The notes under the pieces were generated by a model. It was not told the DNA's origin. It saw only the letters and a list, made by a program, of their open reading frames with translations, and ran no database searches. From a bacterium (GTDB taxonomy: Bacteria > Patescibacteriota > Saccharimonadia > Saccharimonadales > SZUA-47), in the NCBI GenBank assembly GCA_030428125.1, contig JAUIBF010000001.1, forward strand, positions 234,383 through 298,382: DNA of 64,000 bases. Direction: 5' to 3'. The position numbers were made by a program, and so were the translations under genes. Position 1 is the stretch's first letter, and each line of letters opens with the position of its first letter. Shown piece after piece: positions 1,005 through 52,170 of the stretch.

Positions 1005-1418
1005 ATGGTTAATCGAGTAAAAATAAACGGTCAATTTGAAACCGTTGCTCGATTCAGCGCTCACTACAATGAAGGCTGGAACCAATGTCTCGAAGGTCTA
1101 GGTGCTCTGCAACTAGGCCATTTAATGTATAATCCCGGAGAATTCCCAGGATTAACTGGCGTATATCCGAGAGACTCAGATGTTCATTCCCGGTTTATCC
1201 ACTATTGGACGTCAGACGAAGAAATTACTCATCATAGAGTTTTACATGCTGGCAGGGAATCAATTCAGGCTACGAGTTCCGCTGTGCTTCAATTAGTAAC
1301 AGCAGAATTTGAACCTCAGACGCCGAATTGGCTACAAGAAAAACACACAGCTGAACGTCAGGTATACGGACAAATGCCTACGGAGCTTCCGTCGAGACAA
1401 AGGGTGGGAGTAGCTTAA
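1005..1418 (+). CDS. hypothetical protein (orphan, 137 aa, 2 Lys)
   Basis: Long ORF, first of three tightly packed ORFs. No motif recognised. Confidence 0.6.
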   Translation: MVNRVKINGQFETVARFSAHYNEGWNQCLEGLGALQLGHLMYNPGEFPGLTGVYPRDSDVHSRFIHYWTSDEEITHHRVLHAGRESIQATSSAVLQLVTAEFEPQTPNWLQEKHTAERQVYGQMPTELPSRQRVGVA

Positions 1419-1419
1419 A

Positions 1420-2004
1420 ATGGTATTTCAGTCCCTCGAGCCAACACCAAACCTAGACGGCGCAGACAGGGCTGAACAGTACAGAGAAATGGATAGAGCC
1501 GACAGAGCAAGAATACTTTATGAGTCATTCATGCACGCAGATGATGACGAATTGTATATAGGCGACGAGGTGGGGGTTAAGGGGCTTCTGGTGTATCTAG
1601 TGGGGACCTACGTTTCACACAGGGGCGACGAGATAGCAAGTACGCATATATCATTCTCACCACCCACGAAAAAAATTACTTGCACCACAGACTTGGTGAG
1701 TATTTCGTCAGATGGAAGTGATGCGCCTACATTGGACTCGGTTGCTAGGCTTGGTCTAGAGATATTGAGAGAAGAGTACGGAGCGGAAGAAGGAGACCCT
1801 AGGTTCGCTGATTTAGGGTCATTCTGCATGGCCGAGGATATTTCGATTCGTAGTCTCCCAGAATCCCTAACATCTGTTCCTCAAATCGGAGCCATCGAGT
1901 GGCTCGCTGCTCATAGATCACCCGAGCTAGCAGAGGTGCGAAAGCTACCAGTAGCTTATGTGGACGGATCAGACGTAGTACAGGCAGTAGCAGTAGGCAA
2001 TTAA
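1420..2004 (+). CDS. hypothetical protein (orphan, acidic, 194 aa)
   Basis: ATG lies 1 nt after the upstream stop. GGGTGGGAG Shine-Dalgarno-like sequence upstream. No motif recognised. Confidence 0.6.
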   Translation: MVFQSLEPTPNLDGADRAEQYREMDRADRARILYESFMHADDDELYIGDEVGVKGLLVYLVGTYVSHRGDEIASTHISFSPPTKKITCTTDLVSISSDGSDAPTLDSVARLGLEILREEYGAEEGDPRFADLGSFCMAEDISIRSLPESLTSVPQIGAIEWLAAHRSPELAEVRKLPVAYVDGSDVVQAVAVGN

Positions 2005-2006
2005 CT

Positions 2007-2273
2007 ATGTATTTACAAAATGTAGGAATCGAAGCGCCCCAAGGAACTGGTGGGGGTGGCTACCGTGTTGAAAGAGGAATAACTCCCGGGGTTGCTATCG
2101 TGACAAAAGATCCATCCGAATTTAGTGTAATAAGAGAAATAGGAAGTAGTCCAGAAGTAGATATCAGAAGCATGAAGATAACCGAATCTATAGGATATGT
2201 GACAATACCCCAACCAGTTAATGTGGACGCGTTACCCGATTGCGCTCGTGTACTATTTGCTGTTGCTGCGTAG
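2007..2273 (+). CDS. hypothetical protein (orphan, 88 aa)
   Basis: ATG lies 2 nt after the upstream stop. Contains a GTGGGG glycine run. No motif recognised. Confidence 0.5.
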   Translation: MYLQNVGIEAPQGTGGGGYRVERGITPGVAIVTKDPSEFSVIREIGSSPEVDIRSMKITESIGYVTIPQPVNVDALPDCARVLFAVAA

Positions 2274-2333
2274 TTAACTATTGATGTTTTATATCTGTTT
2301 TGTGCGCTCTTTGCGTGATACAATAAAGCGCAT

Positions 2334-3635: not shown

Positions 3636-3638
3636 ATT

Positions 3639-5285
3639 ATGGCAAACAGCACAAAAGATACAGTTTATATAGATGTCGAAGATGAAATAACTGCTGTAAT
3701 TGATAAAGTCGTAAATGCCAAGCACAAAATTGTAGCGTTAGTTTTACCTAAACGAGCTACAGTGTTCCAAAGTCCGGTTAACATGAAGTTGCTCCAAAAA
3801 GCAGCAAAATCTGCCAAGAAAAGTTTGGTTTTGATTACTTCCGATAAAGGGATTCTAGCGATCGCAGCTGTAAGTGGTGTTCATGTTGCTAAATCTCTAA
3901 CCACCAAACCTGAAATTCCCAAGATTGAACAACCAGAGGAAAACATCGAAGAGAGTGTAGACTTAACCGGAGCAGCTATTGCTGGCGCAGCCGGAGCAGC
4001 AGCTGTTGCCGCAAGTACAGATGATAAAGATGAGGCTATCGAGCTAGATAATACTGACGAAAGAGCTATCACATCTGACGAAAAGCCAAAAAGTGGCAAG
4101 AAAAAACTGATGAAAATACCTGATTTCTCAAGCTTTAGGTTAAAGGTTGGCCTAGGAATTGCTGGAGTAGTGCTTCTCGTAGTTCTGTGGTTTGTGGCTT
4201 TTGTTGTTATGCCTAAGGCTACCGTGACAGTAAATACCGATACTTCAACCACTAGTGTAAATACTCAAGCTATATTCCGAGTAGGTGCAGAAGAAGTCGA
4301 TGTTGAAGAGAACATAATACCGGCTGAGCGAGTACAAGCAGAAAAAATTGATAGCATAAAAGTACCAGCTACCGGCCAAAAAGACATAGGCGAGAAAGCT
4401 ACGGGCACATTGACACTAACCAACTGTATCGACGACGGTGAACAGAAAGTCGTTCCTGCTGGAACAAGATTTACAAAAGACGGACTAACATTTGTAACTG
4501 CTGAGCAGGTAATATTGCCGTTCGCTATCGTTGCAGCCGGTGACTGTATCAGCGCAGATTTCGGAAGAAGCCGGGACGTAGATGCTGTTGCCGAAGAAGC
4601 AGGACCTCAGTACAACATATCCGAAGGTAGCTATAACTCCAGCATAAGTGGCATACAAGCATATGGGTCGGATATGAGTGGTGGAAGCTCTGAGATTGTC
4701 AAAGTAATTTCCGATGAAGATGTGCAAAAAGCCGAACAGCAGCTAAAAGGCACCAGCAAAACAGCTGCACTTAACGAAATGAAGTCACAATTAGAAGAAT
4801 CAGGGAAGACACCGGTCGAAGAAACTCTGGCAGAAGGAACTCCGAAAACAACCGTAGTTCCGGCAGTAGGAAAAGAGGCGGACGAAGTTGAAGTTACCAT
4901 AACTATCACCTATAACTTACAAGGTGTTAACGAAGACGATTTGTCTGCAGTTCTAGATCATGAAATTAATGAAAAGATGGGTGAAGATAAAAAGAACATC
5001 AAAGATAATGGCATAGAGGCAGTTAGATTCCAGGTAAGCGATAACTCTAATGAGGCAGACACTAACGTCACGCTTCAAACAGTTGCAACGCTGGGGCCAG
5101 ACATAGATGAAGCTGCCTTAAGAGAGGAGATTGCTGGAAAAAAACGTGGTGATATCGAAAAGCAAATCGAAGAAATTGATGGAGTTAGATCCGTGAGCGT
5201 AGAGTATTCTCCTGCCTGGGTTACTACAACTCCTAAAAGTGCCGATAAGATAACAATAGTTTTTAACGAACCAGATGAAGAATAA
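3639..5285 (+). CDS. single-pass membrane protein with large beta-rich C-terminal domain, function unknown
   Basis: Cytoplasmic N-domain, Ala/Gly/acidic linker, TM helix (GIAGVVLLVVLWFVAFVVM), then a KATVTV...ATGTLTLTN...VPAGTRFT segment. That segment resembles, from memory, baseplate-J-like annotated proteins of CPR genomes; this was not verified. Confidence 0.6.
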   Translation: MANSTKDTVYIDVEDEITAVIDKVVNAKHKIVALVLPKRATVFQSPVNMKLLQKAAKSAKKSLVLITSDKGILAIAAVSGVHVAKSLTTKPEIPKIEQPEENIEESVDLTGAAIAGAAGAAAVAASTDDKDEAIELDNTDERAITSDEKPKSGKKKLMKIPDFSSFRLKVGLGIAGVVLLVVLWFVAFVVMPKATVTVNTDTSTTSVNTQAIFRVGAEEVDVEENIIPAERVQAEKIDSIKVPATGQKDIGEKATGTLTLTNCIDDGEQKVVPAGTRFTKDGLTFVTAEQVILPFAIVAAGDCISADFGRSRDVDAVAEEAGPQYNISEGSYNSSISGIQAYGSDMSGGSSEIVKVISDEDVQKAEQQLKGTSKTAALNEMKSQLEESGKTPVEETLAEGTPKTTVVPAVGKEADEVEVTITITYNLQGVNEDDLSAVLDHEINEKMGEDKKNIKDNGIEAVRFQVSDNSNEADTNVTLQTVATLGPDIDEAALREEIAGKKRGDIEKQIEEIDGVRSVSVEYSPAWVTTTPKSADKITIVFNEPDEE

Positions 5286-11914: not shown

Positions 11915-12718
11915 ATGCACACGAGACACATAAACAGAAATCCTAGGGGCGGATTGTACCCCGGGAGAAGAGAAGTTGATACTAGACCAGATATTGAGTC
12001 AGTGAAAGTTCCAAGTGTAAAGATAGGTCGTTATGTTGATTTTAGTGGTGATGGGGTGCTGTTCGCCAACTACCTTAGGCGACTAGAACTAGATGAAGGC
12101 AACGCTAGAGGACTCTCAAAAGGATGGTTCTCAATAGCCATGTCACCTATTTTTGTAGAGTACGCAGACATAACAACAGGCTTAGGTGAAATGCTGGTTG
12201 ATAGAGCAAGACCTCGAACGTATGCAGGCGAAGTTCGCAGAACCGTTGAAAGTTTACGCACCAATATAAGAGGTATCACAGCTAGCGACAGTGAGAGAGT
12301 AGATAAACTTAATGCATCAAGAAAAGAAGCAGTCGCAACGGCTATAGCAAATGGCGATCATGTTGATGAGATTCAAGAATTTTCCTGGCTGCATGAACCG
12401 GAGTCATCAAGATGGGGTACATCGTTATTTAGTCTTTTAAAGCAGCCCAAGGTTATGGCTACAAGTGGGAGCACCACTGCACACGAATACGGATTTCCGA
12501 TAGCGCAAGGCTTACAAGACCAGATTTTACGAGATGATCTTGCAGAGTTAATCAAAAGCGAAGGCTTACCACTACCTGAGCAAATGCAAAAAGGAAAACG
12601 ACCGGTAGTGCCAGCATTGTCTCTGCACAGAGAATTGTCAGGAATGGTGGGAGGAGAGCCAGTTTTGCCAGTTCCTCCTCAAGTACAGCTCGGACCACTA
12701 GAAATTCATCGATTTTGA
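11915..12718 (+). CDS. hypothetical protein (orphan, 267 aa)
   Basis: Long ORF with AGAGG Shine-Dalgarno-like sequence upstream. No motif recognised. Confidence 0.6.
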   Translation: MHTRHINRNPRGGLYPGRREVDTRPDIESVKVPSVKIGRYVDFSGDGVLFANYLRRLELDEGNARGLSKGWFSIAMSPIFVEYADITTGLGEMLVDRARPRTYAGEVRRTVESLRTNIRGITASDSERVDKLNASRKEAVATAIANGDHVDEIQEFSWLHEPESSRWGTSLFSLLKQPKVMATSGSTTAHEYGFPIAQGLQDQILRDDLAELIKSEGLPLPEQMQKGKRPVVPALSLHRELSGMVGGEPVLPVPPQVQLGPLEIHRF

Positions 12719-12760
12719 CAAAATTACCACTAAGTATTGTGGTATAATCATTTTTAAGGG

Positions 12761-13441
12761 ATGGCAAGAGTAGCAATATTTGAAACATATGCTCCGGTGC
12801 ACTTTGACGGCGAAGAAGATTTTTTCGGTAGAGTCACTGCACTAGTGAGAGACCACCTAGATGATAATAGGTCATCTGGTGGTGTTGTCACGCGAACAAG
12901 CGATAGATTGATTGCTGGCGTAAGCAACCGAGCACAAGTTTTCAACGAGGGCAGGTACTACTTCGGCAGACTATTAGTTCCCAATGTTACGCACAACAGT
13001 AGAAAATTGGACCAAATTCGCGATCAGCTTCTTGAACCAGATGGTGCATACACTAAGTTTGCCGGTGCTCTTATGGAGCTGACAATTGATAAAATTTCAA
13101 CGGTTGAAATTGGAACAGCAGCAGGCAGAAACACATTGATTGTTGCCGGTAATTCCAGACAACTAGATCCAGACATCAAAGTAGTTGATAACTCACTTGC
13201 AGAGTACACAGATGTAGTTGTGGATGCGACTAATAACTTAGTGAGGAGAAGGCAGTCAATGGAAGGCGCTAGTTTTAATACCCTTAATGGCTGTATGCCG
13301 ATTGCCTCTCTAGGCAATGTTGCAACTACGGGTATTGATACCGAACTGCTGGTCAAGAACATAGGTGAATTGGTCGAGGATCCACTAGAAACCTTTGTAG
13401 AGATACCGCAGGATGGTCTGGTGACAGTACTCAAGAGTTAA
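12761..13441 (+). CDS. hypothetical protein (orphan, 226 aa)
   Basis: Long ORF preceded by TGGTATAAT. No motif recognised. Confidence 0.6.
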   Translation: MARVAIFETYAPVHFDGEEDFFGRVTALVRDHLDDNRSSGGVVTRTSDRLIAGVSNRAQVFNEGRYYFGRLLVPNVTHNSRKLDQIRDQLLEPDGAYTKFAGALMELTIDKISTVEIGTAAGRNTLIVAGNSRQLDPDIKVVDNSLAEYTDVVVDATNNLVRRRQSMEGASFNTLNGCMPIASLGNVATTGIDTELLVKNIGELVEDPLETFVEIPQDGLVTVLKS

Positions 13442-13488: not shown

Positions 13489-16305
13489 ATGTCTGAGGTG
13501 ATAAAGGTTCAGGGTGCTCGAGAGCACAATCTGAAAAATATCGATATAGATATACCCCGCAACAAGCTGGTGGTTATTACTGGATTGAGTGGATCTGGTA
13601 AATCTTCGTTAGCGTTCGACACTATTTATGCCGAAGGTCAACGACGCTACGTCGAATCTTTGAGTGCCTATGCACGCCAATTTTTGGGACTTATGGAAAA
13701 ACCCGATGTAGATTACATCGAAGGCTTAAGCCCAGCGATATCAATTGACCAAAAATCTACTTCTAGAAATCCTCGCTCAACTGTCGCGACTGTCACAGAA
13801 ATTTATGATTATTTGCGACTACTTTACGCACGGATTGGGACTGCACACGGACCTGATGGCAAGCCAATTCAGACAATGACCACTCAGGACATTGCCGAAG
13901 GTGTAGAACGTCTACCCGGAGGCCATAGGTTGATGGTTTTAGCGCCCGTAGTTATCGATAAAAAAGGTGAGCACGCCCATATTCCAGAACTATATACTCG
14001 TCAAGGTTATGCAAGAGTTCGCGTTGATGGAGTCGTGTACAGCTTAGAAGAATTTCCGAGTTTAGATAAAAAATACAAACACAATATTGAAGTGGTCGTT
14101 GATAGGGTAGTCAATAATGAAGATCAAAAAAGCCGAATATTCCAAGCTGTAGAAAACGCTTTGCAGTTGGCCGATGGACAGCTGGCTGTTCTTGATGTCG
14201 ATGATGAAGATAAACTACACCGGTTTTCACAGAGATACTACAATCCAGATTACCCGGATTTCATTGCGCCGGACATGGAGCCACGGACATTTAGTTTTAA
14301 TAACCCACACGGGGCCTGTCCAGTATGTACAGGTCTTGGTAACAGACTAGAAGTCGATCCGGAACTAGTAATGCCAAACGGTAAGTTGACAATTGCAGAA
14401 GGGGCGATTCGTCCGTACAATCGGATGGCTCCTGATGCATGGAATATGAAGAAGATGGCAGCCGTTGCTGAGAGGTACAAGTTTTCAATCCATGTTCCGA
14501 CGTCAGAACTTACTGAATCACAATTAGAAAAAATCTTGTACGGGACGGCCAGAGAAACTTACTCAATTGCTCTCGGGTCTGGTAGATATTTCGACACAAC
14601 TTATGAAGGCGTTATACCAAATCTCGAACGACGCCACAAAGAGACCGACAGTGACTTTATGCGTCGTGAAATTGAGCGATTCATGGTTGAGCGTCCATGC
14701 CACGCCTGTCATGGCAAGCGTCTGAAACCCGAAGTTTTGGCGGTTACGGTTCACAATCAATCAATCATGGACATTTGTGAGTTGCCTGTTGCAGACGCAG
14801 TTGAGTTCTTTGCCAAACTAAAATTAAGCGAGAGAGAGCTTAGGATCGCTAAGCAAATTATTAAAGAAATTAACGACAGGCTCAGATTCCTGCATGAAGT
14901 CGGGCTAGGCTATCTAACACTAGCCAGAAGTGCTAGTACCTTGTCTGGTGGAGAAGCTCAGAGAATTAGACTGGCAACGCAAATAGGTTCAGGATTGCAG
15001 GGTGTTTTGTATGTTTTGGACGAGCCATCAATAGGCCTTCATCAGCGTGATAACGAACGGTTGATAGCGACACTGAAGCGACTGAAAGAACTAGGTAATA
15101 CAGTAATTGTTGTCGAACACGATGAAGATACAATCAAAACCGCAGATTATTTAGTAGATATTGGTCCGAAAGCTGGAGTTCATGGAGGTGAAGTAGTAGC
15201 ACACGGGAAGCCTGAAGATGTAGCAAAAACTAAAGCCAGCATTACGGGTCAGTATTTACGCGGTGAACTAAAAATTGACATGCCAAGAACCAGGCGTAAA
15301 GGTAGCGGTAAAACATTAAATGTTCGTGGTGCGCGTGAGCACAACTTAAAAAACATTGATGTAGAAATCCCGTTAGGCAAGATGGTGGTTGTCAGTGGAG
15401 TAAGTGGTTCCGGCAAAAGTACATTAATTAACGACATTGTTGCAAAAGAACTGCACGTAAGGCTTAATCGTGCTCACGAGGCAGTTGGTAGGCATGATGA
15501 TATTGAGGGAATCGATAACCTGGACAAAGTTATTATCATTGATCAGTCGCCAATTGGTAGAACCCCTCGGTCTAATCCTGCAACATATGTTGGACTTTTC
15601 ACTCCAATTAGAGACTTATTTGCTGCAACCCCTGAAGCGAAAATTAGGGGCTACAAGCCAGGCAGATTCAGCTTTAACGTTAAGGGTGGACGTTGCGAAA
15701 ACTGTCAGGGCGACGGAATGATAAAAATTGAAATGCACTTTTTGCCTGATGTTTATGTCCCGTGTGAAGTTTGTAAGGGCAAGCGCTACAACCGTGAAGC
15801 ACTAGAAATTCACTACAAAGGTAAAACCATTGCCGACATTTTAGAAATGACAGTCGAGCAGGCGTTCGAATTTTTCCAGAACATACCAGCAATAGCACGT
15901 AAGTTAGAAACACTAGTTCAGGTAGGCTTGGGCTACATGCATCTGGGCCAGTCCGCAACAACACTGTCAGGCGGAGAAGCTCAGAGAGTGAAGCTTGCTA
16001 CCGAGCTGTCTAAACGCTCAACAGGCAGAACGCTTTATGTATTGGACGAGCCAACAACGGGGCTGCATATGGATGATGTAAATAGGTTGCTCGAAGTTTT
16101 GCATGCCCTGGTCGATACAGGCAACAGCATGGTGATAATCGAACACAATTTGGACGTGATCAAAAACGCAGATCACATTATAGATATGGGTCCAGAAGGT
16201 GGAGCAGGTGGTGGACAGGTAATTGCCGAGGGCACACCTGAGCAAGTCTCTAAAGTAAAAGATTCATTTACCGGTCAATTTTTAAAAAACATCATAGCTA
16301 AATAA
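13489..16305 (+). CDS. uvrA: excinuclease ABC subunit A
   Basis: Two ABC modules ([18 protein letters not shown]; LSGGEAQR twice). Zinc-finger CxxC pairs. 938 aa. Confidence 0.97.
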
Positions 16306-16715
16306 TGAAAACATCGCCGGTTTGTACTTTTAGTAACTTGTCCAATCCGGACATCGCCAATAATTTCCATGCGATTCAAGTAATTGATAGAGCCGCGACC
16401 GACTGCCTAGACACCGACCCCTACGATGAACCACAAAGAGCAGCCGCGCTTTTAGCAATACTTTTTGCTACTGTGCAAGAGCAACAACCAAAGAGAATTT
16501 ACTTCGAAGGAAACGACACCTCGATAATGGCGCAGTCATATTACGCCCTGGATGACCTATGGTTAGAAGATGACCTAGAGCTTTTTGAAGACCCAAAGTC
16601 ATTTATTGAGCGCAATAAAAGGCTAAACGTATATCTTGAAGCTACATGCTTGCTACTGTCGAACATGGATTTAAATCCCAACAATAATCCAATTGTTGCG
16701 GCGCTCGATAGTTGA
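16305..16715 (+). CDS. hypothetical protein (orphan, acidic, 136 aa)
   Basis: The ATG shares its A with the uvrA TAA stop (TAATG). No motif recognised. Confidence 0.55.
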   Translation: MKTSPVCTFSNLSNPDIANNFHAIQVIDRAATDCLDTDPYDEPQRAAALLAILFATVQEQQPKRIYFEGNDTSIMAQSYYALDDLWLEDDLELFEDPKSFIERNKRLNVYLEATCLLLSNMDLNPNNNPIVAALDS

Positions 16716-17428: not shown

Positions 17429-17457
17429 TTGACATATTTAGTCATATTTGGTATAAT
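17429..17457 (+). promoter_or_regulatory. consensus promoter TTGACA-17-TATAAT
   Basis: TTGACA at 17429-17434, TATAAT at 17452-17457, ATG at 17466. Confidence 0.7.
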
Positions 17458-17465
17458 ATTATACT

Positions 17466-17789
17466 ATGACAGAGTATGCCTCCGAAACCCCCATCTTTGA
17501 TATAGGACAACCCGAATCAGCAAGCACAGTCCTAGATGTTGCACCTAATTCCTCTAAGTATTTTAGGTGTGAAGATGGTAATCTACTAAGCCCAGTAGAT
17601 ACGGTTACGATGTTAACCAGGCTAGAACTCGATGTTGACCCTCATCAAATTCAACAAATGGTAGAGCCTAGCCTTTTAGGGATAGCAAACGCAACGCATG
17701 TTGCGATCCTCCAGCATCACAACGAAAGAATCCGTCGTGCGCTAGATGCTAGTACGTGGTTTACGGAGTATTCTCAGATTCAAGCTTAG
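17466..17789 (+). CDS. hypothetical protein (orphan, 107 aa, 1 Lys)
   Basis: ORF directly behind a consensus promoter. Its 3' end overlaps the convergent ABC exporter gene by 4 nt. Confidence 0.55.
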   Translation: MTEYASETPIFDIGQPESASTVLDVAPNSSKYFRCEDGNLLSPVDTVTMLTRLELDVDPHQIQQMVEPSLLGIANATHVAILQHHNERIRRALDASTWFTEYSQIQA

Positions 17790-41938: not shown

Positions 41939-42535
41939 ATGCTAGTTAATGCTGAAACGGGTTTTGTTCACGGGTTTGATATTTATAAAGAAGGATCCTC
42001 AGTTCCCGTAGATATTTTTGTTGGTCATGTCATTGTTGCAGATTGCAGTGTTATCTTGCCAGTCCACTCAAGGGATATGCTAATAGGATTGTCCACTCCA
42101 CTAGGAAGACCGATGCTGGCATCCCATCTTTCTGATAGGATTGAGACGCTAAAAAAACCAGTCAATGTAAACAAAGTTTACGCGGATCTTCAAGAGAGAT
42201 TTGAGGGGACGCCATTAGATGGTCATCTTGTAAGCTTAAGACCAGAAACAGGTGGCCGATCAACCTGGTACGGGATGGTAGATGAAGTTTCGGATGAAGC
42301 ATTGTTAGCATTCGCAAATGAGGGTGAAAGGATTGTCCGTGATTCGAAGACAAAAAAGGGGAAGAGCCTGGACAGACGCCTAGCTCCATTTGTATCATTG
42401 CGTGAATCAATAGATAACCCCGAGCTTGCTGACGAAATAGAAGCTAGTCATCATCTGGGTATTGCATTTGTTACCGCAGGCATTCTAACTTTAGGAACCG
42501 TAGCTACTATTGCGCTTATGAAGAGGGCTAAGTAG
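41939..42535 (+). CDS. hypothetical protein (orphan) with C-terminal TM anchor
   Basis: Long ORF with a C-terminal helix IAFVTAGILTLGTVATIALM. No motif recognised. Confidence 0.6.
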   Translation: MLVNAETGFVHGFDIYKEGSSVPVDIFVGHVIVADCSVILPVHSRDMLIGLSTPLGRPMLASHLSDRIETLKKPVNVNKVYADLQERFEGTPLDGHLVSLRPETGGRSTWYGMVDEVSDEALLAFANEGERIVRDSKTKKGKSLDRRLAPFVSLRESIDNPELADEIEASHHLGIAFVTAGILTLGTVATIALMKRAK

Positions 42536-42580: not shown

Positions 42581-43390
42581 ATGAGTAATTTTATTGCAGA
42601 GGTTAATCTGTGGAACGGAAGAGGCGCCGAAGGTAGACTGCGTGTGACTACTGGCTTTGAAGTCATGGCTGGCGACACAGTACTTAGCGATGTGAATGTG
42701 ATAGGTGGTTTGGCGATGGCTACGCTGATTAATCATCGAGACACACTTATTCCTAAAAGTGGTTTATTACCGTTAGTAGACACAATTGGGTTAGGGCACA
42801 ATCCACTTGATGATCTGGATCCTAAGTTAAATAGACAGAGTAAATTGACCAGAGGTGTTAATTCCTACAGAAGGGCACTACGTAACCCGTTTGCGAAGAA
42901 TGTCTTGCTGTTAGGGTCTGAAGTAGCTTCTGGGCAATGCTGGTATTTCGCAACTGACTTGAGAGACAAGGAGGCAGTTGTTGAATCAGTCACAAGACAG
43001 TCCGTAGAGGAGAGTGGTATCCCTGATGCTGACGCTGTAGTAAGGAGCGTTACGGAAATGTTCGACAAGAAAGGTTCTGGTCACCAAAGCACACCTAAGC
43101 CAAGAGTAGCTTGTTCAGACCGGCCCGAGGAACGGCTTAGGGGTTTTAGGGTGTTAAGACCGGCAACTGCAGCAGACAACAACGCTTTTTTAGACTTTAT
43201 CAAAGGAAGCGAGCCAGGTACTGAAATATCTGCATCTGCTATCGAGGCTTGGAAAGTAGCTAGGGGTATTAGCAGTATGGAGACAGATAAAATTCTCTTC
43301 GTTGCTAGTGGGTTAGATCTGGTTAGGTACAATACAAGGCCTCCAGAAAAACCAGGAAGCTCCTCAGAAGTTATATTTATACGGCAATAA
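42581..43390 (+). CDS. hypothetical protein (orphan, 269 aa)
   Basis: Long ORF. No motif recognised. Confidence 0.6.
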   Translation: MSNFIAEVNLWNGRGAEGRLRVTTGFEVMAGDTVLSDVNVIGGLAMATLINHRDTLIPKSGLLPLVDTIGLGHNPLDDLDPKLNRQSKLTRGVNSYRRALRNPFAKNVLLLGSEVASGQCWYFATDLRDKEAVVESVTRQSVEESGIPDADAVVRSVTEMFDKKGSGHQSTPKPRVACSDRPEERLRGFRVLRPATAADNNAFLDFIKGSEPGTEISASAIEAWKVARGISSMETDKILFVASGLDLVRYNTRPPEKPGSSSEVIFIRQ

Positions 43391-43453
43391 AAAAATGGCA
43401 AATCTATACAACAAAACACGCAAATTATAAATCCCAGGGACACATCGGAATGG

Positions 43454-43740
43454 ATGCCTTTTGGGGTCTGTAGAGCATATCCAACAGAAACCTTTTTTCC
43501 TTCAGATGGTGTCGGTGTCGATAATGCAATAAAAATATGTCGGGGGGTGGTGGTGGTGGAGTTATAGATGCTTGTTTGGAGTATGCTTTATCCGAAAGAA
43601 TTGAACATGGAGTATGGGGTGGAGAATCAGAAAGAGGAAGAAGACGTATTTTACGTAATCGTCGAGCTACTGCAAACCAAGCGATGGTTAGTACTGAGGT
43701 GTCAGTTAGTAAAGTACCACCGGATACAGCTAATTTTTAG
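43454..43740 (+). pseudogene. WhiB-like (Wbl) gene with a reading-frame break in a G6(TGG)4 tract
   Basis: Frame 2 reads (W)MPFGVCRAYPTETFFPSDGVGVDNAIKIC. Frame 1, from 43537, reads ...VIDACLEYALSERIEHGVWGGESERGRRRILRNRR. Together these give the Wbl pattern C-x22-C...C plus GVWGG and a basic tail. The switch lies at 43542-43559. Confidence 0.65.
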
Positions 43741-43775: not shown

Positions 43776-46250
43776 ATGAAGAGATTTGAACCAAAAGTAA
43801 TTGAGCCGAAATGGCAAAAAATATGGGCTGAAAATGCAACGTATGAAACATCGGAAGATTCAGACAAGCCCAAAATTTATGCTACGCCGATGCTTCCATA
43901 TCCGAGTGGGACCGGTTTGCATACGGGCCATGTTCGTAATTATTCGATAACTGATGCCGTTGCTCGTTTTTATAGACAGAATGGTCACAATACCCTAACT
44001 ACAATGGCTTGGGACTCATTTGGATTACCGGCTGAAAACTACGCGATTAAAACTGGTACTCCACCAGCAGAATCAACAGCAAAGAACATTGCATATTTTA
44101 AAAAACAGCTTTTGACGCTTGGTATGAGCTACGACTGGTCTAGAGAGTTCGATACGTCAGATCCAAGTTATTACAAGTGGACACAATGGGTGTTTGCTTT
44201 GATGTACAAGCAAGGTCTTGCTTACAAGGCTGAAAAACAGCAGTGGTGGTGCGAAAAATGTAACACCGTGCTTGCTGATGAGCAGGTAATAGCCGGGAAG
44301 TGTTGGCGACACGACGGAGAAGATGACCCTCTGGTCAACAAGCGACCATTATCACAATGGTTTTTCAAAATTACAGATTACGTGGATGATATCCTGGAAT
44401 CAACTGACGAGCTAAACTGGCCAGAAAAAATCAAAACTATGCAGAAAAACTGGATTGGTCGCTCTGAAGGTACAGTAGTGAACTTCAAGTTATCAGGGCT
44501 TGGTGCTGACAAGCATCATCTGGACGTGTTCACCACTGCTATCGAGACCATATACGGTACGACGTTCATGGTTGTAGCGCCAGAACACCCTATCGTTGGC
44601 GAATTTGGTCAACTTGCAGAAAACGCCCAAGAAGTTCAAGATTACGTGGAAAAATCTTTGCGAAAAAGTGAACTTGATCGCGAAACAGACAAAGTAAAAA
44701 CTGGAATTCAGATCGATGGCCTAAAGGCTGTGAACCCATTGAACGGAGAAGAAATTCCGGTTTGGATTGCAGACTACGTACTAATGGGCTACGGAAGTGG
44801 TGCAATTATGGCAGTCCCAGGTGAGGACGAGCGTGACTTTGAATTCGCCAAAAAGTATGATTTGCCAATTATTTATACGACCGACAGAAACGAATTTGTT
44901 AATTACGGAAAAGACATTAAACCCAACAGAGCAGGTTACAAGATGGCAAATTCTGGTGAGTTTGATGGGTTAGATTTAGAAGCTGCCAGAGATGCAATTG
45001 TTAATAAACTTATCGATGAAAATTTAGGTGAGCAAAAAGTTCACTACAAAATTCGCGACTGGTTAGTCAGCAGGCAGCGATATTGGGGCGCTCCAGTGCC
45101 GATTATTTATTGTCCCGAGCACGGCGAAGTTTTGGTTCCCGAAGACAAATTACCGGTAGAGCTTCCAAAGGTAGATAACTATGTGCCAGATGGTAAAAAT
45201 TCGTCAGTTCTTGCAGGGGTAGAAGACTGGGTAAATACAACTTGTCCAGAATGTGATAAGCCTGCAAAACGCGAAACAGACACCATGGATGGCTATGTTT
45301 GCAGTACCTGGTATTTGCATCGCTACACAGACGCGCAAAATGCAAGCCAGGCATTTAACCCAGAAAAATCAAATTACTGGTTCCCGATTGATTTTTACTT
45401 TGGTGCAGATCACGCGGTTGCGCACTTGCTATACATTAGATTTTTCCAGAGAGTATTGGTCGATGCAGGTTTAGCAGATGATAAAGAACCTGTGAAGAGG
45501 CTGGTTTACAACGGTTACATCAATGCAGAAGATGGAACGAAAATGAGCAAGAGCAAAGGCAATACAGTTGATCCGATGGATATTATCGAGTCAGGCTATG
45601 GAGCTGATGCGTTGCGTGTGTTTGAGTTGTTTATTGCGCCATATGATCAGGACACAAGCTGGAACAGTAACGGGGTACCGGGTGCTTATAGATTCTTGAA
45701 TCGAGTTTGGGTTTTGCTTCAGGAGTATCTAGAAGATAAAAATTCTGAACCTGCCACACCAGAAGAAATTTTGCGTAGTTGCCATAAAATGATTGCTAAA
45801 GTTACTGATGACATTAAGAATCTAGGTTTTAACACCGCAGTATCTTCGATGATGACAGCAGTAAATGAGCTGTATCTGCTTAAAGCACAGCATGGATATG
45901 GGGACAGAGAAGAATGGAAGTTTGCACTAGAAAGCTTTGCGCAATTGCTGGGTCCATTTGCTCCACACATAGCTGAAGAAATGTGGCATGAACTGGGCCA
46001 TGAGGACTCGGTGCATATTGATAATTGGCCGAAACATGATGAAAAGTATTTAGCCGAAGATACTCTTACAATTGCCGTGCAGGTAAACGGAAAGGTTAGA
46101 GCAGAAATTAACATCCCGGCTGATGCAGGCAAGGACTTTGTCGAATCTGAAGCGATGAAACAAGAAAATGTTGCAGCTCATATGGAAGGCAAGCAAGTGG
46201 TTAAATTCATCTACGTTCCTGGCAAAATCGCTAATATAGTTGTTAAATAG
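43776..46250 (+). CDS. leuS: leucine--tRNA ligase
   Basis: HIGH-type motif (LHTGHVRNY), KMSKS, CP1 editing domain. 824 aa. Confidence 0.97.
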   Translation: MKRFEPKVIEPKWQKIWAENATYETSEDSDKPKIYATPMLPYPSGTGLHTGHVRNYSITDAVARFYRQNGHNTLTTMAWDSFGLPAENYAIKTGTPPAESTAKNIAYFKKQLLTLGMSYDWSREFDTSDPSYYKWTQWVFALMYKQGLAYKAEKQQWWCEKCNTVLADEQVIAGKCWRHDGEDDPLVNKRPLSQWFFKITDYVDDILESTDELNWPEKIKTMQKNWIGRSEGTVVNFKLSGLGADKHHLDVFTTAIETIYGTTFMVVAPEHPIVGEFGQLAENAQEVQDYVEKSLRKSELDRETDKVKTGIQIDGLKAVNPLNGEEIPVWIADYVLMGYGSGAIMAVPGEDERDFEFAKKYDLPIIYTTDRNEFVNYGKDIKPNRAGYKMANSGEFDGLDLEAARDAIVNKLIDENLGEQKVHYKIRDWLVSRQRYWGAPVPIIYCPEHGEVLVPEDKLPVELPKVDNYVPDGKNSSVLAGVEDWVNTTCPECDKPAKRETDTMDGYVCSTWYLHRYTDAQNASQAFNPEKSNYWFPIDFYFGADHAVAHLLYIRFFQRVLVDAGLADDKEPVKRLVYNGYINAEDGTKMSKSKGNTVDPMDIIESGYGADALRVFELFIAPYDQDTSWNSNGVPGAYRFLNRVWVLLQEYLEDKNSEPATPEEILRSCHKMIAKVTDDIKNLGFNTAVSSMMTAVNELYLLKAQHGYGDREEWKFALESFAQLLGPFAPHIAEEMWHELGHEDSVHIDNWPKHDEKYLAEDTLTIAVQVNGKVRAEINIPADAGKDFVESEAMKQENVAAHMEGKQVVKFIYVPGKIANIVVK

Positions 46251-46340: not shown

Positions 46341-46493
46341 GTGGGTAAACCTAAGAAACGAACTAGCGCGCGTAAAACCGGTCTTCGCAGAAGTCACATT
46401 GTATTGGACTTAGCAAAGAAAGTTAACGCAAAATCTCCGGTAAAAGCCCGGACTACTACCAAGCAATCTGGTAAAAAACTAGCTGCAAAATAG
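46341..46493 (+). CDS. rpmF: ribosomal protein L32 (50 aa, below ORF-track cutoff)
   Basis: GTG start. Translation (M)GKPKKRTSARKTGLRRSHIVLDL... matches the L32 K-[KR]-x-T-S...RR-x-H pattern. AGGTG Shine-Dalgarno-like sequence 7 nt upstream. Confidence 0.75.
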   Translation: MGKPKKRTSARKTGLRRSHIVLDLAKKVNAKSPVKARTTTKQSGKKLAAK

Positions 46494-47517: not shown

Positions 47518-47521
47518 ATTT

Positions 47522-48223
47522 ATGCAGCAACAAGTTAAAAAATACATAGATTTTGCGCGAGACACTCTTGGACTAACCTTTAAAGACGTGCAGCTACTAA
47601 TGACAGCATTTACTCACAGGAGCTATGTCAACGAGCATAAAAAGTCAGTAAAGGAACACAACGAACGGCTAGAGTTCCTTGGCGATGCTGTTTTGGAGCT
47701 AGTAGTTACAGACTTCTTGTTCGATAATCATGATGAACAAGAAGGTGTTCTGACTAACTGGCGCAGTGCACTAGTTCGTACAGAGAGTATCGGTGCTGCT
47801 GCGCATAAGTTAGGTTTTGAAGAAATGTTACGTCTAAGTAAGGGCGAAAAACGCGGCTCAGAAAGAGCTAGGCTACAGATTCTCGCAAACTCTTACGAGG
47901 CAGTAGTTGGCGCAATTTACCTTGACCAAGGGTACGAGGCTGCAGAAAAATTTATCACTAACTCCGTTATTAAAACATTCGATAATATCTTAGAAACCGG
48001 CTCATGGCTTGATCCTAAATCTAAATATCAGGAGGTAGTACAAAGCGACGAAGGCTTCACCCCTCAGTACAAGGTCTTAAGCGAAGAAGGGCCAGATCAC
48101 GACAAGGTGTTTACCGTGGGTGTGTTCGTAAATGACGACTTGCGCGCTAAAGGAACTGGACCAAGCAAGCAAAATGCTCAAGTAACAGCTGCCGAAAAAG
48201 CCCTCAAAAAACACAAATCTTAA
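47522..48223 (+). CDS. rnc: ribonuclease III
   Basis: Signature NERLEFLGDAVLE and a C-terminal dsRBD (PKSKYQEVVQ...HDKVFTV). Confidence 0.93.
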   Translation: MQQQVKKYIDFARDTLGLTFKDVQLLMTAFTHRSYVNEHKKSVKEHNERLEFLGDAVLELVVTDFLFDNHDEQEGVLTNWRSALVRTESIGAAAHKLGFEEMLRLSKGEKRGSERARLQILANSYEAVVGAIYLDQGYEAAEKFITNSVIKTFDNILETGSWLDPKSKYQEVVQSDEGFTPQYKVLSEEGPDHDKVFTVGVFVNDDLRAKGTGPSKQNAQVTAAEKALKKHKS

Positions 48224-48269
48224 ACTTCTCATGCTTGCAGTTTGCAATGTCCTGTAGGAATATTATCTG

Positions 48270-48932
48270 ATGGGAAATATTGAAATTGCTCCAGAGCTTG
48301 ATAGGAGCTTAACTGCACTCCAGGTCTTTAGACGTTTACATGTTGCAGCAGAAGTTCCGTTTGAAACAGCAGCCGAACTACAGGGAATCGATCTTCAGGA
48401 TACCAGCACCTGTCGGGTGTCACCACAGGTTGGCAATACTGCTGTTTTGATGACAAGATTTCTAGATAGAAGTTACGGTAGTAAGCATAGGATGATACGT
48501 ACAATACACTTGCAACCAACAAACTCTAGTGTACCTTTAATGCAAGTCAATAGAGTCGGAAACAATGGTTCATATGTGGCACGTAGTGTTCAGGCATATC
48601 CACACCTTGAGATAAATGGATTGCGAGTGTACTCTTCTCGTCTGGATAGCGAAGAAGTAGTCTTCAATTTCGATGTATTGCGAAAATCAGCAGAAGAACT
48701 AGCTAAGCAGTCTCGGACTTTAATTCCTGTCGGATATGGCAGAGTTGTTGCTGCTGATGGAATGACACTTGACGAAATGACTGAAGAGGACTTTGCGACC
48801 GTAAACTCTGTTAATAGAGTGATTAGGATTACTGCCGCTGCGGCAGTAACTGCTTTGGGTGGCGCCAATCAAAGACATCTACTTGACGAGATGAACCTTA
48901 CAGCTAGAACTTCGGTTTCCTTGTCCGAGTAG
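48270..48932 (+). CDS. hypothetical protein (orphan, 220 aa, 3 Lys)
   Basis: Long ORF between rnc and rpsP. No motif recognised. Confidence 0.55.
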   Translation: MGNIEIAPELDRSLTALQVFRRLHVAAEVPFETAAELQGIDLQDTSTCRVSPQVGNTAVLMTRFLDRSYGSKHRMIRTIHLQPTNSSVPLMQVNRVGNNGSYVARSVQAYPHLEINGLRVYSSRLDSEEVVFNFDVLRKSAEELAKQSRTLIPVGYGRVVAADGMTLDEMTEEDFATVNSVNRVIRITAAAAVTALGGANQRHLLDEMNLTARTSVSLSE

Positions 48933-48957
48933 TCTGCTCCGTATGTCTTCAATATAA

Positions 48958-49620: not shown

Positions 49621-50085
49621 ATGTCTGATAACAAAACAATCGACCAGCAATTTATAGAATATGTGGTCCAATCACTTGTAAGTAACCCGGATGCTGTAGT
49701 CGTTGAGCGAACTATTGATGAAAAAGGTGTATTACTAACTCTTACAGTAGACCCAGAAGATCTAGGGCGAGTAATTGGTAAAAGGGGTGCAACTGCACAA
49801 AGCCTGCGTACTCTGCTGCGTGCACTTGGCACAAAACAAGAAGCTCGATTCAACCTTAAAATTGTAGACAACGGCGAACCTAAGCCTGAGCGACAGTCAA
49901 AAGGTTCAGGCGATGGATGGGCTTCAGCGCCATCTAGCTCAAATGACGAAAGCTCTAATGAAGTAGAAGCTGAAGAAGATACAACGTCAGCTGCAGAAGA
50001 CGCAGCAAACGATAGTGGCGAAGAAGAATCTGCAGTAGAGCGAACTCGACGCGAACTAGAAGATCTTGATGATCTTGATGTCTAG
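49621..50085 (+). CDS. khpA: KH-domain RNA-binding protein (KhpA/YlqC-like) with acidic C-terminal extension
   Basis: VQSLVSNPDAVVVE...GRVIGKRGATAQSLRTLL (GxxG KH motif). Classic position after rpsP. Confidence 0.8.
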   Translation: MSDNKTIDQQFIEYVVQSLVSNPDAVVVERTIDEKGVLLTLTVDPEDLGRVIGKRGATAQSLRTLLRALGTKQEARFNLKIVDNGEPKPERQSKGSGDGWASAPSSSNDESSNEVEAEEDTTSAAEDAANDSGEEESAVERTRRELEDLDDLDV

Positions 50086-50108
50086 AAAGTAAACTAAGAT
50101 ATTGATTG

Positions 50109-50134
50109 AAGAGCTCCTCGGAGCTCTTTTATTA
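50109..50134 (+). terminator. rho-independent terminator after the KH-domain gene
   Basis: Stem AGAGCTC/GAGCTCT around CTCG, followed by TTTTATT. Confidence 0.7.
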
Positions 50135-50149
50135 TGTATTGAAATCGGA

Positions 50150-50177
50150 TTTAAATCGGAGTTAACTCCGATTTAAA
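50150..50177. repeat. perfect 28-bp palindrome TTTAAATCGGAGTT|AACTCCGATTTAAA, plus an extra half-site AAATCGGA at 50142-50149
   Basis: Read directly from the sequence: the reverse complement of the left 14 nt equals the right 14 nt. Confidence 0.85.
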
Positions 50178-50248
50178 GTGAAATAACAGATTAAAATTTG
50201 TACATACTGAACTGAGACCGGATTAATACCAAGGAACAATTATTTAAC

Positions 50249-50277
50249 TTGCTTATGCATAGTTTGTCTGGTATCAT
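50249..50277 (+). promoter_or_regulatory. promoter TTGCTT-17-TATCAT for the candidate ncRNA
   Basis: TTGCTT at 50249-50254, a 17-nt spacer, TATCAT at 50272-50277. Confidence 0.45.
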
Positions 50278-50283
50278 CTGATT

Positions 50284-50500
50284 AGTCGATACAAAAATAA
50301 AACGACTGCGAGCCCCAGTAGTAAGCCAAAAAATTACACTGGTGGAAACCCGAAAGTAAATATGTGGCTACTACGGGGTAAAATCCCAGCTCTGGATTAA
50401 TATGAGCAAGACGGTTTAACAGATAGAAAGCTCACGCGAGCAAACCTTATTGGTTTGGAGCTTTATGTGACTAAACAACCATCCACTGGGGTGGTTTTTT
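50284..50500 (+). ncRNA. candidate structured small RNA of unknown class (about 215 nt)
   Basis: No ORF of 60 aa or more in any frame across 50086-50521. Bounded by a promoter-like element and a strong terminator (50477-50500). An internal 13-bp stem joins 50316-50330 with 50366-50378 (two bulged A). Smaller hairpins at 50384-50399 and 50441-50457. Confidence 0.45.
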
Positions 50501-50521
50501 AGTTGTGATATAATAAAATCA

Positions 50522-51166
50522 ATGAAAATACAAGTTATAACACTTTTCCCAGAGATGTTTGAAGGAGTTTTAGGATCCAGCATGCTTTGGAAGGCTAAAG
50601 AGCGAAATGGTGTCGAATATGAGTTAATTGATTTGCGTCAGTACGGCATTGGACCTCGCAAGCAAGTCGACGATCCTCCATATGGTGGTGGTGACGGTAT
50701 GCTCATGAAGCCAGAGCCAATAGTTGCGGCCATTGAAGCAGCAAAAAAGCTAGATCCATCAGCAAAGGTATATTTACCTACACCTAGAGGAGAAATATTC
50801 AAACAATCAAAAGCTAAGAAGATCGCAAAATCTGAACAGGGTATGATTATTGTCTGCCCAAGATATGAAGGTTACGACGAGAGAATCACTAAATGGATAG
50901 ACGAGCAGTTCTGTATCGGAAACTATGTGTTAACAGGAGGCGAAATACCGGCAATGGCATTAATTGATAGTGTTGTTCGATTACTGCCAGGAGTGCTTGG
51001 TGGCGAAGCATCAGCTGAAATAGAGAGTTTTCAGGCAGATGATAAGTCGATTGAGTTTCCACAGTACACTCGTCCGGAAGATTTTAAAGGCATGAAAGTC
51101 CCAGATGTTCTCTTAAGTGGCCATCATGCTGAAATTCAGAAATGGCGCAAGGAAAACAGTAAATGA
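50522..51166 (+). CDS. trmD: tRNA (guanine37-N1)-methyltransferase
   Basis: MKIQVITLFPEMFEG, PPYGGGDGMLMKPEP, GRYEGYDER, VLTGGEIPAM. TGATATAAT box at 50506-50514. Confidence 0.95.
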   Translation: MKIQVITLFPEMFEGVLGSSMLWKAKERNGVEYELIDLRQYGIGPRKQVDDPPYGGGDGMLMKPEPIVAAIEAAKKLDPSAKVYLPTPRGEIFKQSKAKKIAKSEQGMIIVCPRYEGYDERITKWIDEQFCIGNYVLTGGEIPAMALIDSVVRLLPGVLGGEASAEIESFQADDKSIEFPQYTRPEDFKGMKVPDVLLSGHHAEIQKWRKENSK

Positions 51167-52170
51167 GCAACGTTATAGATATAAAGAAAGCGCTAGAAGA
51201 GCGCAACAGAGATGCTTCAATAGCTGAATCAGGAGAAATAGCACAGCTTCAGCACTTTCCTGAGGCGCCACCACTAGCCACCGCAGGAGAGGTTAGGGCA
51301 CTGGTTGGAGATCCTTTTACAAGTGAAGAGCTTGCTAAAGTTTTTGATTATCACAGAGAAACAGTGCTGGGTTTCACAGCACGGAACGGATTGGAGTCTC
51401 GCACCCAAAGAATCTTTGAAGAATCACTAGCTGACACTACACCATTTCTGCAAGACGACACAGGCAATCCAATACCATCATACTTAGACGTTGCAGAAAC
51501 TGAACCAAAGTCTAAGGAGTGGATACACCGAGGAGTAATAACTTTATCAGATATTAACAGATACGCAGGAGAAATAGTTTTTGGTTATCGCAGAACTTTT
51601 CCACGACGCAAAAGCCATCCGTATTCTGCTGCAGATATTGTCTTAAGGAGTGCTTATGCGGGCGTCGCATATGAACTATTTGCTAAAAGTTTAAACGCTG
51701 CAGCAATGCAAGCCAATAAATTCGGTACGTATAGGCACGGGATTAATATGCATTCTATACATATGGATGAAGGTACCCAGCAGCTACTTGTAGGTGAAAG
51801 ACTACGTAAATTAAAAAGATTTGAGTTGCGTGACCACGAAGGCGAAAGACTGATCAGGGGTTTCGGTCATTTAGGGCTAACTGCCGAGCTTGAAAGAACT
51901 GAACTAGTGACTGAAATTGAAGCTGGTGAGATTACTCGCTACATAAATGCGTACTGGCGAGAACGTCTACCTGAAGGTTGCGGTATAGAAGGCGCCGAGA
52001 ATTGGTTAATAGGATACTCCTACCCGTATCATGTTGACGATATTATTCAGACTCTAAAAGCTTTCAGGAGCATAGAACAACCAAGGTTAATAGAAGACAA
52101 CTTCAAGGATACCCTTGAACAGGCATTTACCCCGTCGCATGGCTTACGACTAGTTACGGACGCTGATTAG
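51163..52170 (+). CDS. hypothetical protein (orphan, 335 aa)
   Basis: ATGA overlap with the trmD stop. No motif recognised. Confidence 0.6.
   Translation: MSNVIDIKKALEERNRDASIAESGEIAQLQHFPEAPPLATAGEVRALVGDPFTSEELAKVFDYHRETVLGFTARNGLESRTQRIFEESLADTTPFLQDDTGNPIPSYLDVAETEPKSKEWIHRGVITLSDINRYAGEIVFGYRRTFPRRKSHPYSAADIVLRSAYAGVAYELFAKSLNAAAMQANKFGTYRHGINMHSIHMDEGTQQLLVGERLRKLKRFELRDHEGERLIRGFGHLGLTAELERTELVTEIEAGEITRYINAYWRERLPEGCGIEGAENWLIGYSYPYHVDDIIQTLKAFRSIEQPRLIEDNFKDTLEQAFTPSHGLRLVTDAD

Follow-up and report, generated by a model that had tools for sequence, protein, structure and literature searches.

Minimal mobile elements (MMEs) were defined in Neisseria as variable gene content between the same conserved flanking genes, exchanged by recombination in these flanks after natural transformation and accompanied by neither mobility genes nor repeats (by Saunders and Snyder in 2002 and by Snyder et al. 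in 2007, both as presented in PMC3787668). Within the Saccharibacteria, hypervariable genes were described in the oral lineage HMT-352 (PMC9040727), high synteny with gain and loss of single genes on the syntenic backbone was described in group G1 (PMC7427843), and natural competence was shown in cultivated members (PMC10633639). The present analysis concerns a stretch of 64,000 nucleotides from a Saccharibacteria genome (GenBank assembly GCA_030428125.1, contig JAUIBF010000001.1, positions 234,383 to 298,382 of the forward strand; hereafter the window), in which eleven lysine-poor open reading frames (ORFs), named here by their start positions, stand singly, in pairs, or as a trio among conserved genes. 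The ORFs had been noticed in a preliminary description made from the DNA letters alone, and their coordinates and plus-strand orientation were confirmed exactly. The slots that hold them were found to differ in content even between close relatives, and the ORFs are on balance probably separate, unrelated accessory genes that are restricted to a narrow clade, evolve fast, and occupy slots exchanged through recombination in conserved flanks, in the manner of MMEs.

The likeness to the MMEs of Neisseria (PMC3787668) extends to content that can match a distant genome and differ from a close one, which was observed here between trmD and sodN. In contrast to the restriction, toxin, and metabolic cassettes described there, the cargo in the window consists almost wholly of orphans, and the divergence is much deeper: synonymous divergence (dS) is saturated between the compared genomes, and individual exchange events are therefore hard to date. 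The HMT-352 and G1 lineages share with the window a conserved gene order, a minority of genes with very low identity, and single genes gained or lost, while junction-specific slots, block exchange with a core neighbor, and lysine depletion were not described in those studies (PMC9040727; PMC7427843). The eleven ORFs also resemble bacterial ORFans in being short, fast-evolving, narrowly distributed, and without known domains. Classical ORFans are said, after work by Daubin and Ochman from 2004, to be richer in A+T than their genome and often linked to phages; in contrast, the eleven ORFs have an equal GC content at third codon positions (GC3), a slightly higher one at first and second positions (GC1 and GC2), no sign of phages, and a specific shift from lysine to arginine. 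Phage morons are single extra co-directional genes between conserved genes, often with their own promoter. The arrangement in the window is similar in these respects, but it is situated in a cellular chromosome, and no associated phage genes, PHROG matches, or matches to viral contigs were found. Finally, the A chains of AB toxins are markedly depleted in lysine relative to arginine, a depletion demonstrably linked there, unlike here, to escape from ubiquitination in the eukaryotic cytosol (PMC4030972; PMC3153193).

Contents of the gene slots among related genomes

Synteny was compared across about 100 related Saccharibacteria loci, which covered eight of the eleven ORFs, the trio between alaS and ftsA (1005–2273) lying outside. 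Gene order was strongly conserved across these loci. For all eight comparable ORFs, the junction is vacant in many of the relatives or filled with unrelated ORFs, and a tblastn search over these loci recovered none of the eight and all of the neighboring core genes. Of 63 relatives, for example, 41 had an rnc–rpsP junction of about 100 bp, and the other 22 had unrelated ORFs in it. The trmD–sodN junction was no longer than 137 bp in ten of 15 relatives, and of the eight relatives compared at Ddl–leuS, four had at most 222 bp, one (L054) had 534 bp, and three carried unrelated ORFs. Among genomes with UvrA proteins 88–89% identical, the PGPGW–uvrA junction held zero, one, or two ORFs, the uvrA–L25 junction zero or one, and the L25–ABC transporter junction mutually unrelated ORFs of 67–186 amino acids (aa). 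The uvrA–L25 junction was empty in L002, L109, and L110. Different content between the same flanks was thus observed in close relatives at rnc–rpsP, trmD–sodN, uvrA–L25, PGPGW–uvrA, L25–ABC, and Ddl–leuS, and the earlier claim that the ORFs are placed inside an otherwise conserved context was borne out for the eight that could be compared. Around these six slots, only short, chance-level matches were found in a search for flanking repeats. Neither the genes called in the related loci nor the Pfam scans revealed a mobility gene, with 26 window genes never scanned directly. Only seven Pfam family matches (at most seven proteins) were obtained for 45 slot ORFs of the relatives.

The window has a GC content of 42%, with nearly all genes on the plus strand and a purine-rich coding strand. 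Its core genes (alaS, ftsA, ruvX, mltG, obg, exoI, uvrA, L25, uvrC, ligA, ddl, leuS, nusB, rnc, rpsP, trmD, and sodN) have their closest relatives in metagenome-assembled genomes of Saccharibacteria (Patescibacteria); the best L25 match among GTDB species representatives, a set that does not contain the window genome itself, was 70% identical. Closer relatives were reached through UvrA homologs and a NUDIX cluster mate. The closest one is represented by loci L106, L113, and L114, which belong to one organism: L113 and L114 are 100% identical over 3,977 nt, and L106 and L114 share the same sample of origin. Its identity with the window was 96% in UvrA, 95% in the KH-domain protein, 91% in trmD, and 90% in rnc.

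Even in this relative, only four of the eight ORFs had orthologs (46–83% identity), two were absent, and two slots were occupied by unrelated ORFs. A stretch of about 737 bp carrying o48270 stands in place of a spacer of about 45 nt, the whole rnc–rpsP gap of the closest relative being 114 bp. The blastn alignment breaks at 48220 and 48958, the junction is clean, no repeats were found to flank the insert, and o48270 had no tblastn match in 80 rnc loci. Similarly, o42581 is absent, leuS following directly after the ortholog of o41939. At the positions of o17466 and o51163, the closest relative encodes unrelated ORFs of 100 aa and 229 aa, respectively.

At the trmD–sodN slot, the content follows a different genome from its surroundings. 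While the window trmD is 91% identical to that of the closest relative (L113) and 78% to that of the more distant L105, sodN is 85% identical to the L105 gene and 47% to the L113 gene, and o51163 has a homolog in L105 only. Further downstream, the S24 and LPG synthase genes return to the pattern of the closest relative (70 versus 56% and 68 versus 42% for L113 versus L105, respectively). Since o51163 and sodN match the distant genome and the flanks match the closest one, the two genes were exchanged as a block by recombination. Two allele types of sodN exist in the clade, and their distribution is independent of the relationships of trmD. At least one slot was thus shown, as judged from these identities, to have been exchanged together with a neighboring gene, which directly exemplifies block exchange between lineages, natural recombination being little documented in this phylum. 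A similar discordance was observed next to o17466, where the identity of the ABC transporter is 66–68% with more distant genomes and only 54% with the closest relative, suggesting a recombination breakpoint at the slot between o17466 and this gene. Additionally, leuS, which adjoins o42581, shares only 62% identity with the closest relative.

Mosaicism relative to the closest relative was seen in several core genes (Ddl, leuS, sodN, and the ABC transporter; at 39831–41009, 43776–46250, 52209–52616, and 17786–19558), with neighbors that are 90–96% identical. The Ddl of the window is of a 392-aa type, only 29% identical to the 306-aa Ddl of the relative. Close to o42581, a frameshift in a G-rich stretch interrupts a WhiB-like gene (43420–43740) that the closest relative also lacks: the N-terminal half of the gene (..CRAYPTETFFPSDGVGVDNAIKIC..) lies in one frame and its C-terminal half (..VIDACLEYALSERIEHGVWGG..) forms a 67-aa ORF at 43537–43740. 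The fragment is either a pseudogene or an assembly error. In front of the trio, the last 50 nt of alaS (636–685) are duplicated 146 nt downstream (782–831) with 94% identity. In the second copy the frame is retained and closed by a separate stop (after ITKEQSSSAGIRRIKAVLI), and stretches able to form hairpins lie in the 96-nt interval between the two. The duplication looks like the scar of an insertion or recombination event.

The comparisons support an acquisition by insertion or exchange for at least three cases, namely o48270, o42581, and o51163 with sodN. To this extent, the suggestion that foreign genes had been acquired at many loci was upheld; its other part was not, as the ORFs are not compositionally foreign in GC3 or in their AGA/AGG usage. 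Recent insertion was not supported for o11915, o12761, o16305, and o41939, which the closest relative shares, in keeping with vertical inheritance, and which diverge fast. The fate of these genes at greater distances varied. The identity of o12761 falls from 83% at a UvrA identity of 96% to an undetectable level at 89%, a drop too abrupt for its measured rate. At the same UvrA identity of 89%, o16305 was still detectable (L108, E=1.7e-13). The counterparts of o11915 in L107 and L108 showed no detectable homology. Both divergence and replacement evidently occur in these slots.

Coding evidence and searches for related proteins

The eleven ORFs were shown by codon statistics and by their orthologs to be coding and, it appears, under purifying selection. 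With a codon model derived from the other genes, every one of them scored best in its annotated frame among the six, with o2007 having the smallest preference (0.16), and the pattern GC1>GC2>GC3 was found in the eleven. Their length exceeded the shuffled expectation with P<=0.0005 in nine cases and with P=0.007 for o17466, while the length of o2007 (88 aa) was not significant. In the closest relative, the orthologs of o11915, o12761, o16305, and o41939 have the same position and the same length. Against locus L106, o11915 is 57% identical to its 267-aa ortholog, with a nonsynonymous divergence (dN) of 0.33 and saturated dS; o12761 is 83% identical (dN 0.107, dS 2.4); and o16305 is 46% identical (E=6.5e-37, dN 0.53), with a second ortholog in L108 at 33%. 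As dN against the same relative was 0.037 for uvrA and 0.111 for L25, the three ORFs flanking uvrA have roughly 3–14 times the dN of uvrA, and dS is saturated in them as in their core neighbors. The ortholog of o41939, found in L112 and L114, is 201 aa long and 58% identical, with a conserved membrane anchor. For o51163, a single non-self representative was recovered among 1.84 billion proteins: P0012 (335 aa, E=1.8e-54), with an identity of 38% as reported by the search and 37% in a global alignment. Its context in L105, trmD(ATGA)-X-sodN-S24, is that of the window. Constraint was measured by dN and dS for three ORFs and by identity for o51163 (37%) and o41939 (58%).

These data make it very unlikely that the ORFs are spurious or decaying, either as non-functional frames in expanded intergenic DNA or as de novo genes not yet functional. 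Such an origin would agree with the chance-compatible length of o2007, with the lack of any homolog of o17466 even in the closest relative, and with a synonymous codon usage slightly less typical than that of the core (p=0.0014), but not with the lengths of nine ORFs, the preference for their own frame in all eleven, or the intact orthologs of five, with saturated dS in the three computed. Moreover, the amino-acid composition is protein-like, its distance being 0.075 to the core and 0.14 to random translation, and the ancestral junctions of about 100 bp are too short for ORFs of 220–335 aa to have arisen in place.

The earlier statement that no motif could be recognized withstood the database searches. 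No Pfam match was obtained for any of the eleven, the best E-value being 0.033 and below every gathering score, and none was obtained at E<=0.01 in NCBIfam, PHROGs, or PADLOC; the PADLOC library contains defense systems described up to 2023, to whose proteins no match was thus found. Sequence searches of PDB with seven of the ORFs and of viral contigs with four, o1420 being included in both, were likewise without a match. Among 5.8 billion proteins, o42581 matched only itself, and o17466 had no homolog anywhere. In a Kyte-Doolittle scan, ten ORFs showed neither a signal peptide nor a membrane segment, and o41939 showed only the C-terminal anchor. AlphaFold2 models of o51163 with its single homolog (pLDDT 36) and of o12761 from a single sequence (pLDDT 30) were not usable for a fold search. 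That the ORFs are singletons in the collection of 90% clusters does not set them apart, given that the same holds for 16 of the 19 core proteins present in it. The genome as a whole is poorly sampled, which is a caveat on the word orphan.

All-versus-all comparison of the eleven proteins by BLASTP and phmmer gave nothing below E=0.1, and hidden paralogy, for which the preliminary description had proposed an all-versus-all comparison by profile and structure, was not found at the sequence level. Its other proposal of a lineage-specific gene class was retained as regards the restriction to a narrow lineage and abandoned as regards shared ancestry, no pair being similar. Positional counterparts from two subclades showed no significant similarity in profile-profile comparison (best hhalign p=0.015, over 27 N-terminal residues), and z did not exceed 2.5 for any of 14 positional pairs aligned by Smith-Waterman with shuffling. 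A single hidden paralogous family diverged past sequence recognition could account for the common compositional bias, the common lack of motifs, and the similar genomic placement. It is nevertheless extremely unlikely in view of the missing pairwise and profile-profile similarity, the spread of lengths from 88 to 335 aa, and the occurrence of the same bias in unrelated non-core ORFs at 44 of 52 loci of relatives. About one-sixth of the genes in the window are thus unrecognizable and, as it seems, neither junk nor one family, forming a layer of fast turnover on a rigid gene order.

Lysine depletion and its possible causes

Composition was compared with the other 51 genes of the window, referred to as core in this respect. 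Pooled lysine was 3.0% in the eleven ORFs and 7.3% in the other genes (Mann-Whitney p=1.6e-5), pooled arginine was 7.2% and 4.7% (p=0.0012), and the ratio K/(K+R) was 0.30 and 0.61, respectively. The remaining residues mostly deviated from the core by no more than about 20%; larger differences were seen for His, Pro, and Trp, significant only for Pro. Separation was nearly complete against 31 conserved proteins without transmembrane segments (presumed cytoplasmic), with per-protein means of 2.8% and 8.6% lysine (p=4e-6), and the lysine content is about half of the random expectation from the local nucleotide composition (5.4–6.0%). The earlier hand counts of lysine were exact (2/137, 2/88, 1/107, and 3/220, against 8 in the first 60 residues of UvrC), and the Lys/Arg bias proved to be real and distinct from the other genes when GC, GC3, codon usage, and amino acids were computed. 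GC3 was 0.364 in the eleven ORFs and 0.355 in the core (p=0.95), while GC1 and GC2 were higher than in the core. Of their arginine codons, 66% were AGA or AGG, compared with 48% in the core, and the excess arginine was not encoded by CGN. The shift therefore amounts to A-to-G changes at the second codon position, which explains why GC1 and GC2 are raised and GC3 is unchanged.

The bias was described earlier as shared by the eleven ORFs, which it is, but it is not peculiar to them: non-core ORFs were poorer in lysine than their conserved neighbors at 44 of 52 related loci, where ORFs without a homolog among the window genes averaged 4.8% lysine and conserved genes 7.2%. Low lysine was also retained in the orthologs of the eleven ORFs. 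The only other lysine-poor proteins in the window are exported ones, such as MltG, YkuD, and a DsbA-like protein (mean 4.3%). Of the five other window genes without a Pfam match, all conserved in relatives, four are lysine-rich (7.3–8.4%), and so are some residents of variable slots, such as the aminotransferase (9.2%) and sodN (11.9%). Low lysine is therefore specific to non-conserved soluble orphans. Two simpler rules were rejected. Lysine poverty of all unknown window genes fails on the four lysine-rich Pfam-less genes, and a dependence of lysine on evolutionary rate fails on o12761, which is 83% identical to its ortholog yet has 2.7% lysine, as well as on the divergent leuS (62%), sodN (47%), and ABC transporter (54%), which have 6–12% lysine. 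A K/(K+R) below about 0.45, compared with a proteome average of 0.6, may serve as a simple marker for picking this layer of genes in other genomes.

A recent transfer from compositionally distinct donors, either a high-GC actinobacterial host or phages, would make low lysine and high arginine a donor signature. The K/(K+R) of 0.30 does resemble that of high-GC proteomes, GC1 and GC2 exceed those of the core, comparison with the closest relative shows o48270 and o42581 to be insertions, and a WhiB-like fragment adjoins o42581. This origin is disfavored and quite unlikely, since GC3 equals that of the core, the extra arginine is encoded by AGA/AGG, and no PHROG or viral-contig match was found; a high-GC donor in particular is unlikely. 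Furthermore, neither o51163 (1.84 billion representatives) nor o42581 (5.8 billion proteins) has a homolog outside the lineage, and the sole homolog of o51163 belongs to another Saccharibacteria genome in the same context. An adaptive avoidance of lysine, by which the proteins would leave the cytoplasm for the cell surface or an actinobacterial host and, as hypervariable effectors, dodge modification such as pupylation or proteases of the host, is unlikely as well, although it has several observations on its side. A lysine content at half of random expectation suggests selection against lysine rather than drift, low lysine persists in orthologs, the other lysine-poor window proteins are exported, and fast evolution with strain-specific presence would suit conflict genes; a precedent exists in the lysine-poor A chains of AB toxins, in which ubiquitination is limited (PMC4030972; PMC3153193). 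Set against these, ten of the ORFs lack both a signal peptide and a membrane segment, no N- or C-terminal motif is common to the eleven, no secretion system gene lies nearby, and their K/(K+R) is below that of even the exported proteins (0.29 versus 0.54, p=0.001). It would be a still longer shot, and is highly doubtful, that Saccharibacteria keep a hypervariable set of recombination-shuffled, lysine-avoiding proteins that act on or in the host bacterium after export without an N-terminal signal and there escape lysine-directed tagging, e.g., pupylation in actinobacterial hosts, or proteolysis. If lysine avoidance were functional, the ORFs would be candidate host-interaction proteins, the main unknown of the episymbiotic lifestyle.

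Under the favored reading of separate accessory genes in exchangeable slots, turnover would follow DNA uptake and proceed through homologous recombination within the conserved genes on either side, with no need for mobility genes, and the junctions listed above would constitute a concrete map of strain-specific gene sites in Saccharibacteria. The lysine depletion would be a K-to-R shift through changes of AAR to AGR codons. Soluble proteins on average favor lysine over arginine (bioRxiv 10.64898/2026.07.13.738247; PMC5870856), and the depletion would then most likely reflect the absence of the selection that keeps abundant cytoplasmic housekeeping proteins lysine-rich, with no shared function implied. 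Accessory proteins of low abundance, outside such solubility pressure, would be the most economical reading. Fast divergence and strain-specific presence point to possible roles in interactions with the host, phages, or competitors.

Several observations weigh against this reading. The comparison of synteny and conservation covers eight of the eleven ORFs, no related locus extending over the alaS–ftsA junction of the trio. The identities directly support recombination at a single slot, trmD–sodN, and suggest it for two others, but not for the rest, and competence of this organism is assumed by analogy with other Saccharibacteria, the com genes of the genome lying outside the window. Positional counterparts share a faint terminal likeness, for example MA+..FE at the N-terminus and, in the first gene of the pair before uvrA, LGI[HY] at the C-terminus, and this resemblance (hhalign p=0.015) hints that some apparent replacements may be cases of extreme divergence. 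The proposed low-abundance account of lysine depletion leaves o12761 unexplained, as it is conserved like L25 (83%) yet has 2.7% lysine, and it does not explain why lysine falls below random expectation or why it stays low in the orthologs.

Expression signals and further features of the window

The ORFs and associated features are listed in Table 1. The eleven ORFs were shown to be equipped with what appear to be the expression signals of the genome itself, either −10 boxes close to the ATG or coupling to an upstream core gene. Both couplings claimed in the preliminary description, uvrA with o16305 through TAATG and trmD with o51163 through ATGA, are present, and so is the strong promoter at 17429–17457, a perfect TTGACA-17-TATAAT consensus with an extended TG. 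This promoter ends 8 nt ahead of the ATG of o17466, a layout of the leaderless type. Several orphans share the layout of a TATAAT box near the start with the core genes uvrA, obg, and trmD.

Table 1. Positions of the eleven ORFs and of associated features in the window.
Feature	Position	Strand	Description
o1005	1005..1418	+	137 aa; opens the tightly packed alaS–ftsA trio; Lys 1.5%, Arg 6.6%
o1420	1420..2004	+	194 aa; second of trio; starts 1 nt past the o1005 stop; Lys 2.1%
o2007	2007..2273	+	88 aa; third of trio; weakest candidate among the eleven
o11915	11915..12718	+	267 aa; Arg-rich N-terminus; first of pair in PGPGW–uvrA slot
o12761 −10 box (TGnTATAAT)	12741-12748	+	12 nt ahead of ATG
o12761	12761..13441	+	226 aa; second of PGPGW–uvrA pair; Lys 2.7%
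o16305	16305..16715	+	136 aa; uvrA–L25 slot; start overlaps uvrA stop by one base (TAATG)
Promoter of o17466	17429..17457	+	sigma-70 type, TTGACA-17-TATAAT with extended TG; 12/12 match
o17466	17466..17789	+	107 aa; L25–ABC transporter slot; Lys 0.9%
o41939	41939..42535	+	198 aa; C-terminal membrane anchor at residues 173-195; after class IV aminotransferase gene
o42581	42581..43390	+	269 aa; specific to window lineage
Inserted stretch	48221..48957	.	about 737 bp carrying o48270; between rnc stop and conserved rpsP promoter
o48270	48270..48932	+	220 aa; Lys 1.4%, Arg 8.6%
o51163	51163..52170	+	335 aa; ATGA overlap with trmD
sodN (Ni superoxide dismutase)	52209..52616	+	exchanged together with o51163

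TATAAT boxes were found 6–12 nt before the start codon at many genes of the window, e.g., at 13475–13480 (uvrA), 50509–50514 (trmD), and 17452–17457 (o17466), and any Shine-Dalgarno-like motif was present at about 35% of the window genes, which points to leaderless or near-leaderless mRNAs being widespread in the genome. In the trio, o1420 has the highest GC content of the eleven ORFs (0.49). The three trio proteins have similar small hydrophobic tails (..QRVGVA at 1400–1418, ..QAVAVGN at 1987–2004, and ..VLFAVAA at 2256–2273), a similarity that may be due to chance.

The gap between the KH-domain gene and trmD (50085–50522) comprises 437 bp without an ORF and contains two terminator-like hairpins (50108–50129 and 50477–50496). 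The closest relative has a 179-aa NUDIX gene in this gap, of which no remnant was detectable in the window. The usual place of rimM is between rpsP and trmD; from rpsP to trmD of the window, no rimM ORF of 60 aa or more was found. Between leuS and nusB lies an ORF of 50 aa (46341–46493) that begins with GTG and falls below the 60-aa limit of the ORF list. It is 100% identical to the closest relative, and from our own reading of the sequence we take it to be probably ribosomal protein L32. The 548-aa gene after ftsA (3639–5285) carries the precomputed Pfam label Baseplate_J in locus L121; its homolog in L109 is unlabeled, and no Pfam match at E<=0.001 was obtained for the window gene in our own scan. 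Additionally, a 645-aa protein (19701–21638) without a Pfam match, composed of 22% Asp and Glu and having a single C-terminal membrane segment, is conserved across relatives, with 47% identity in L002.

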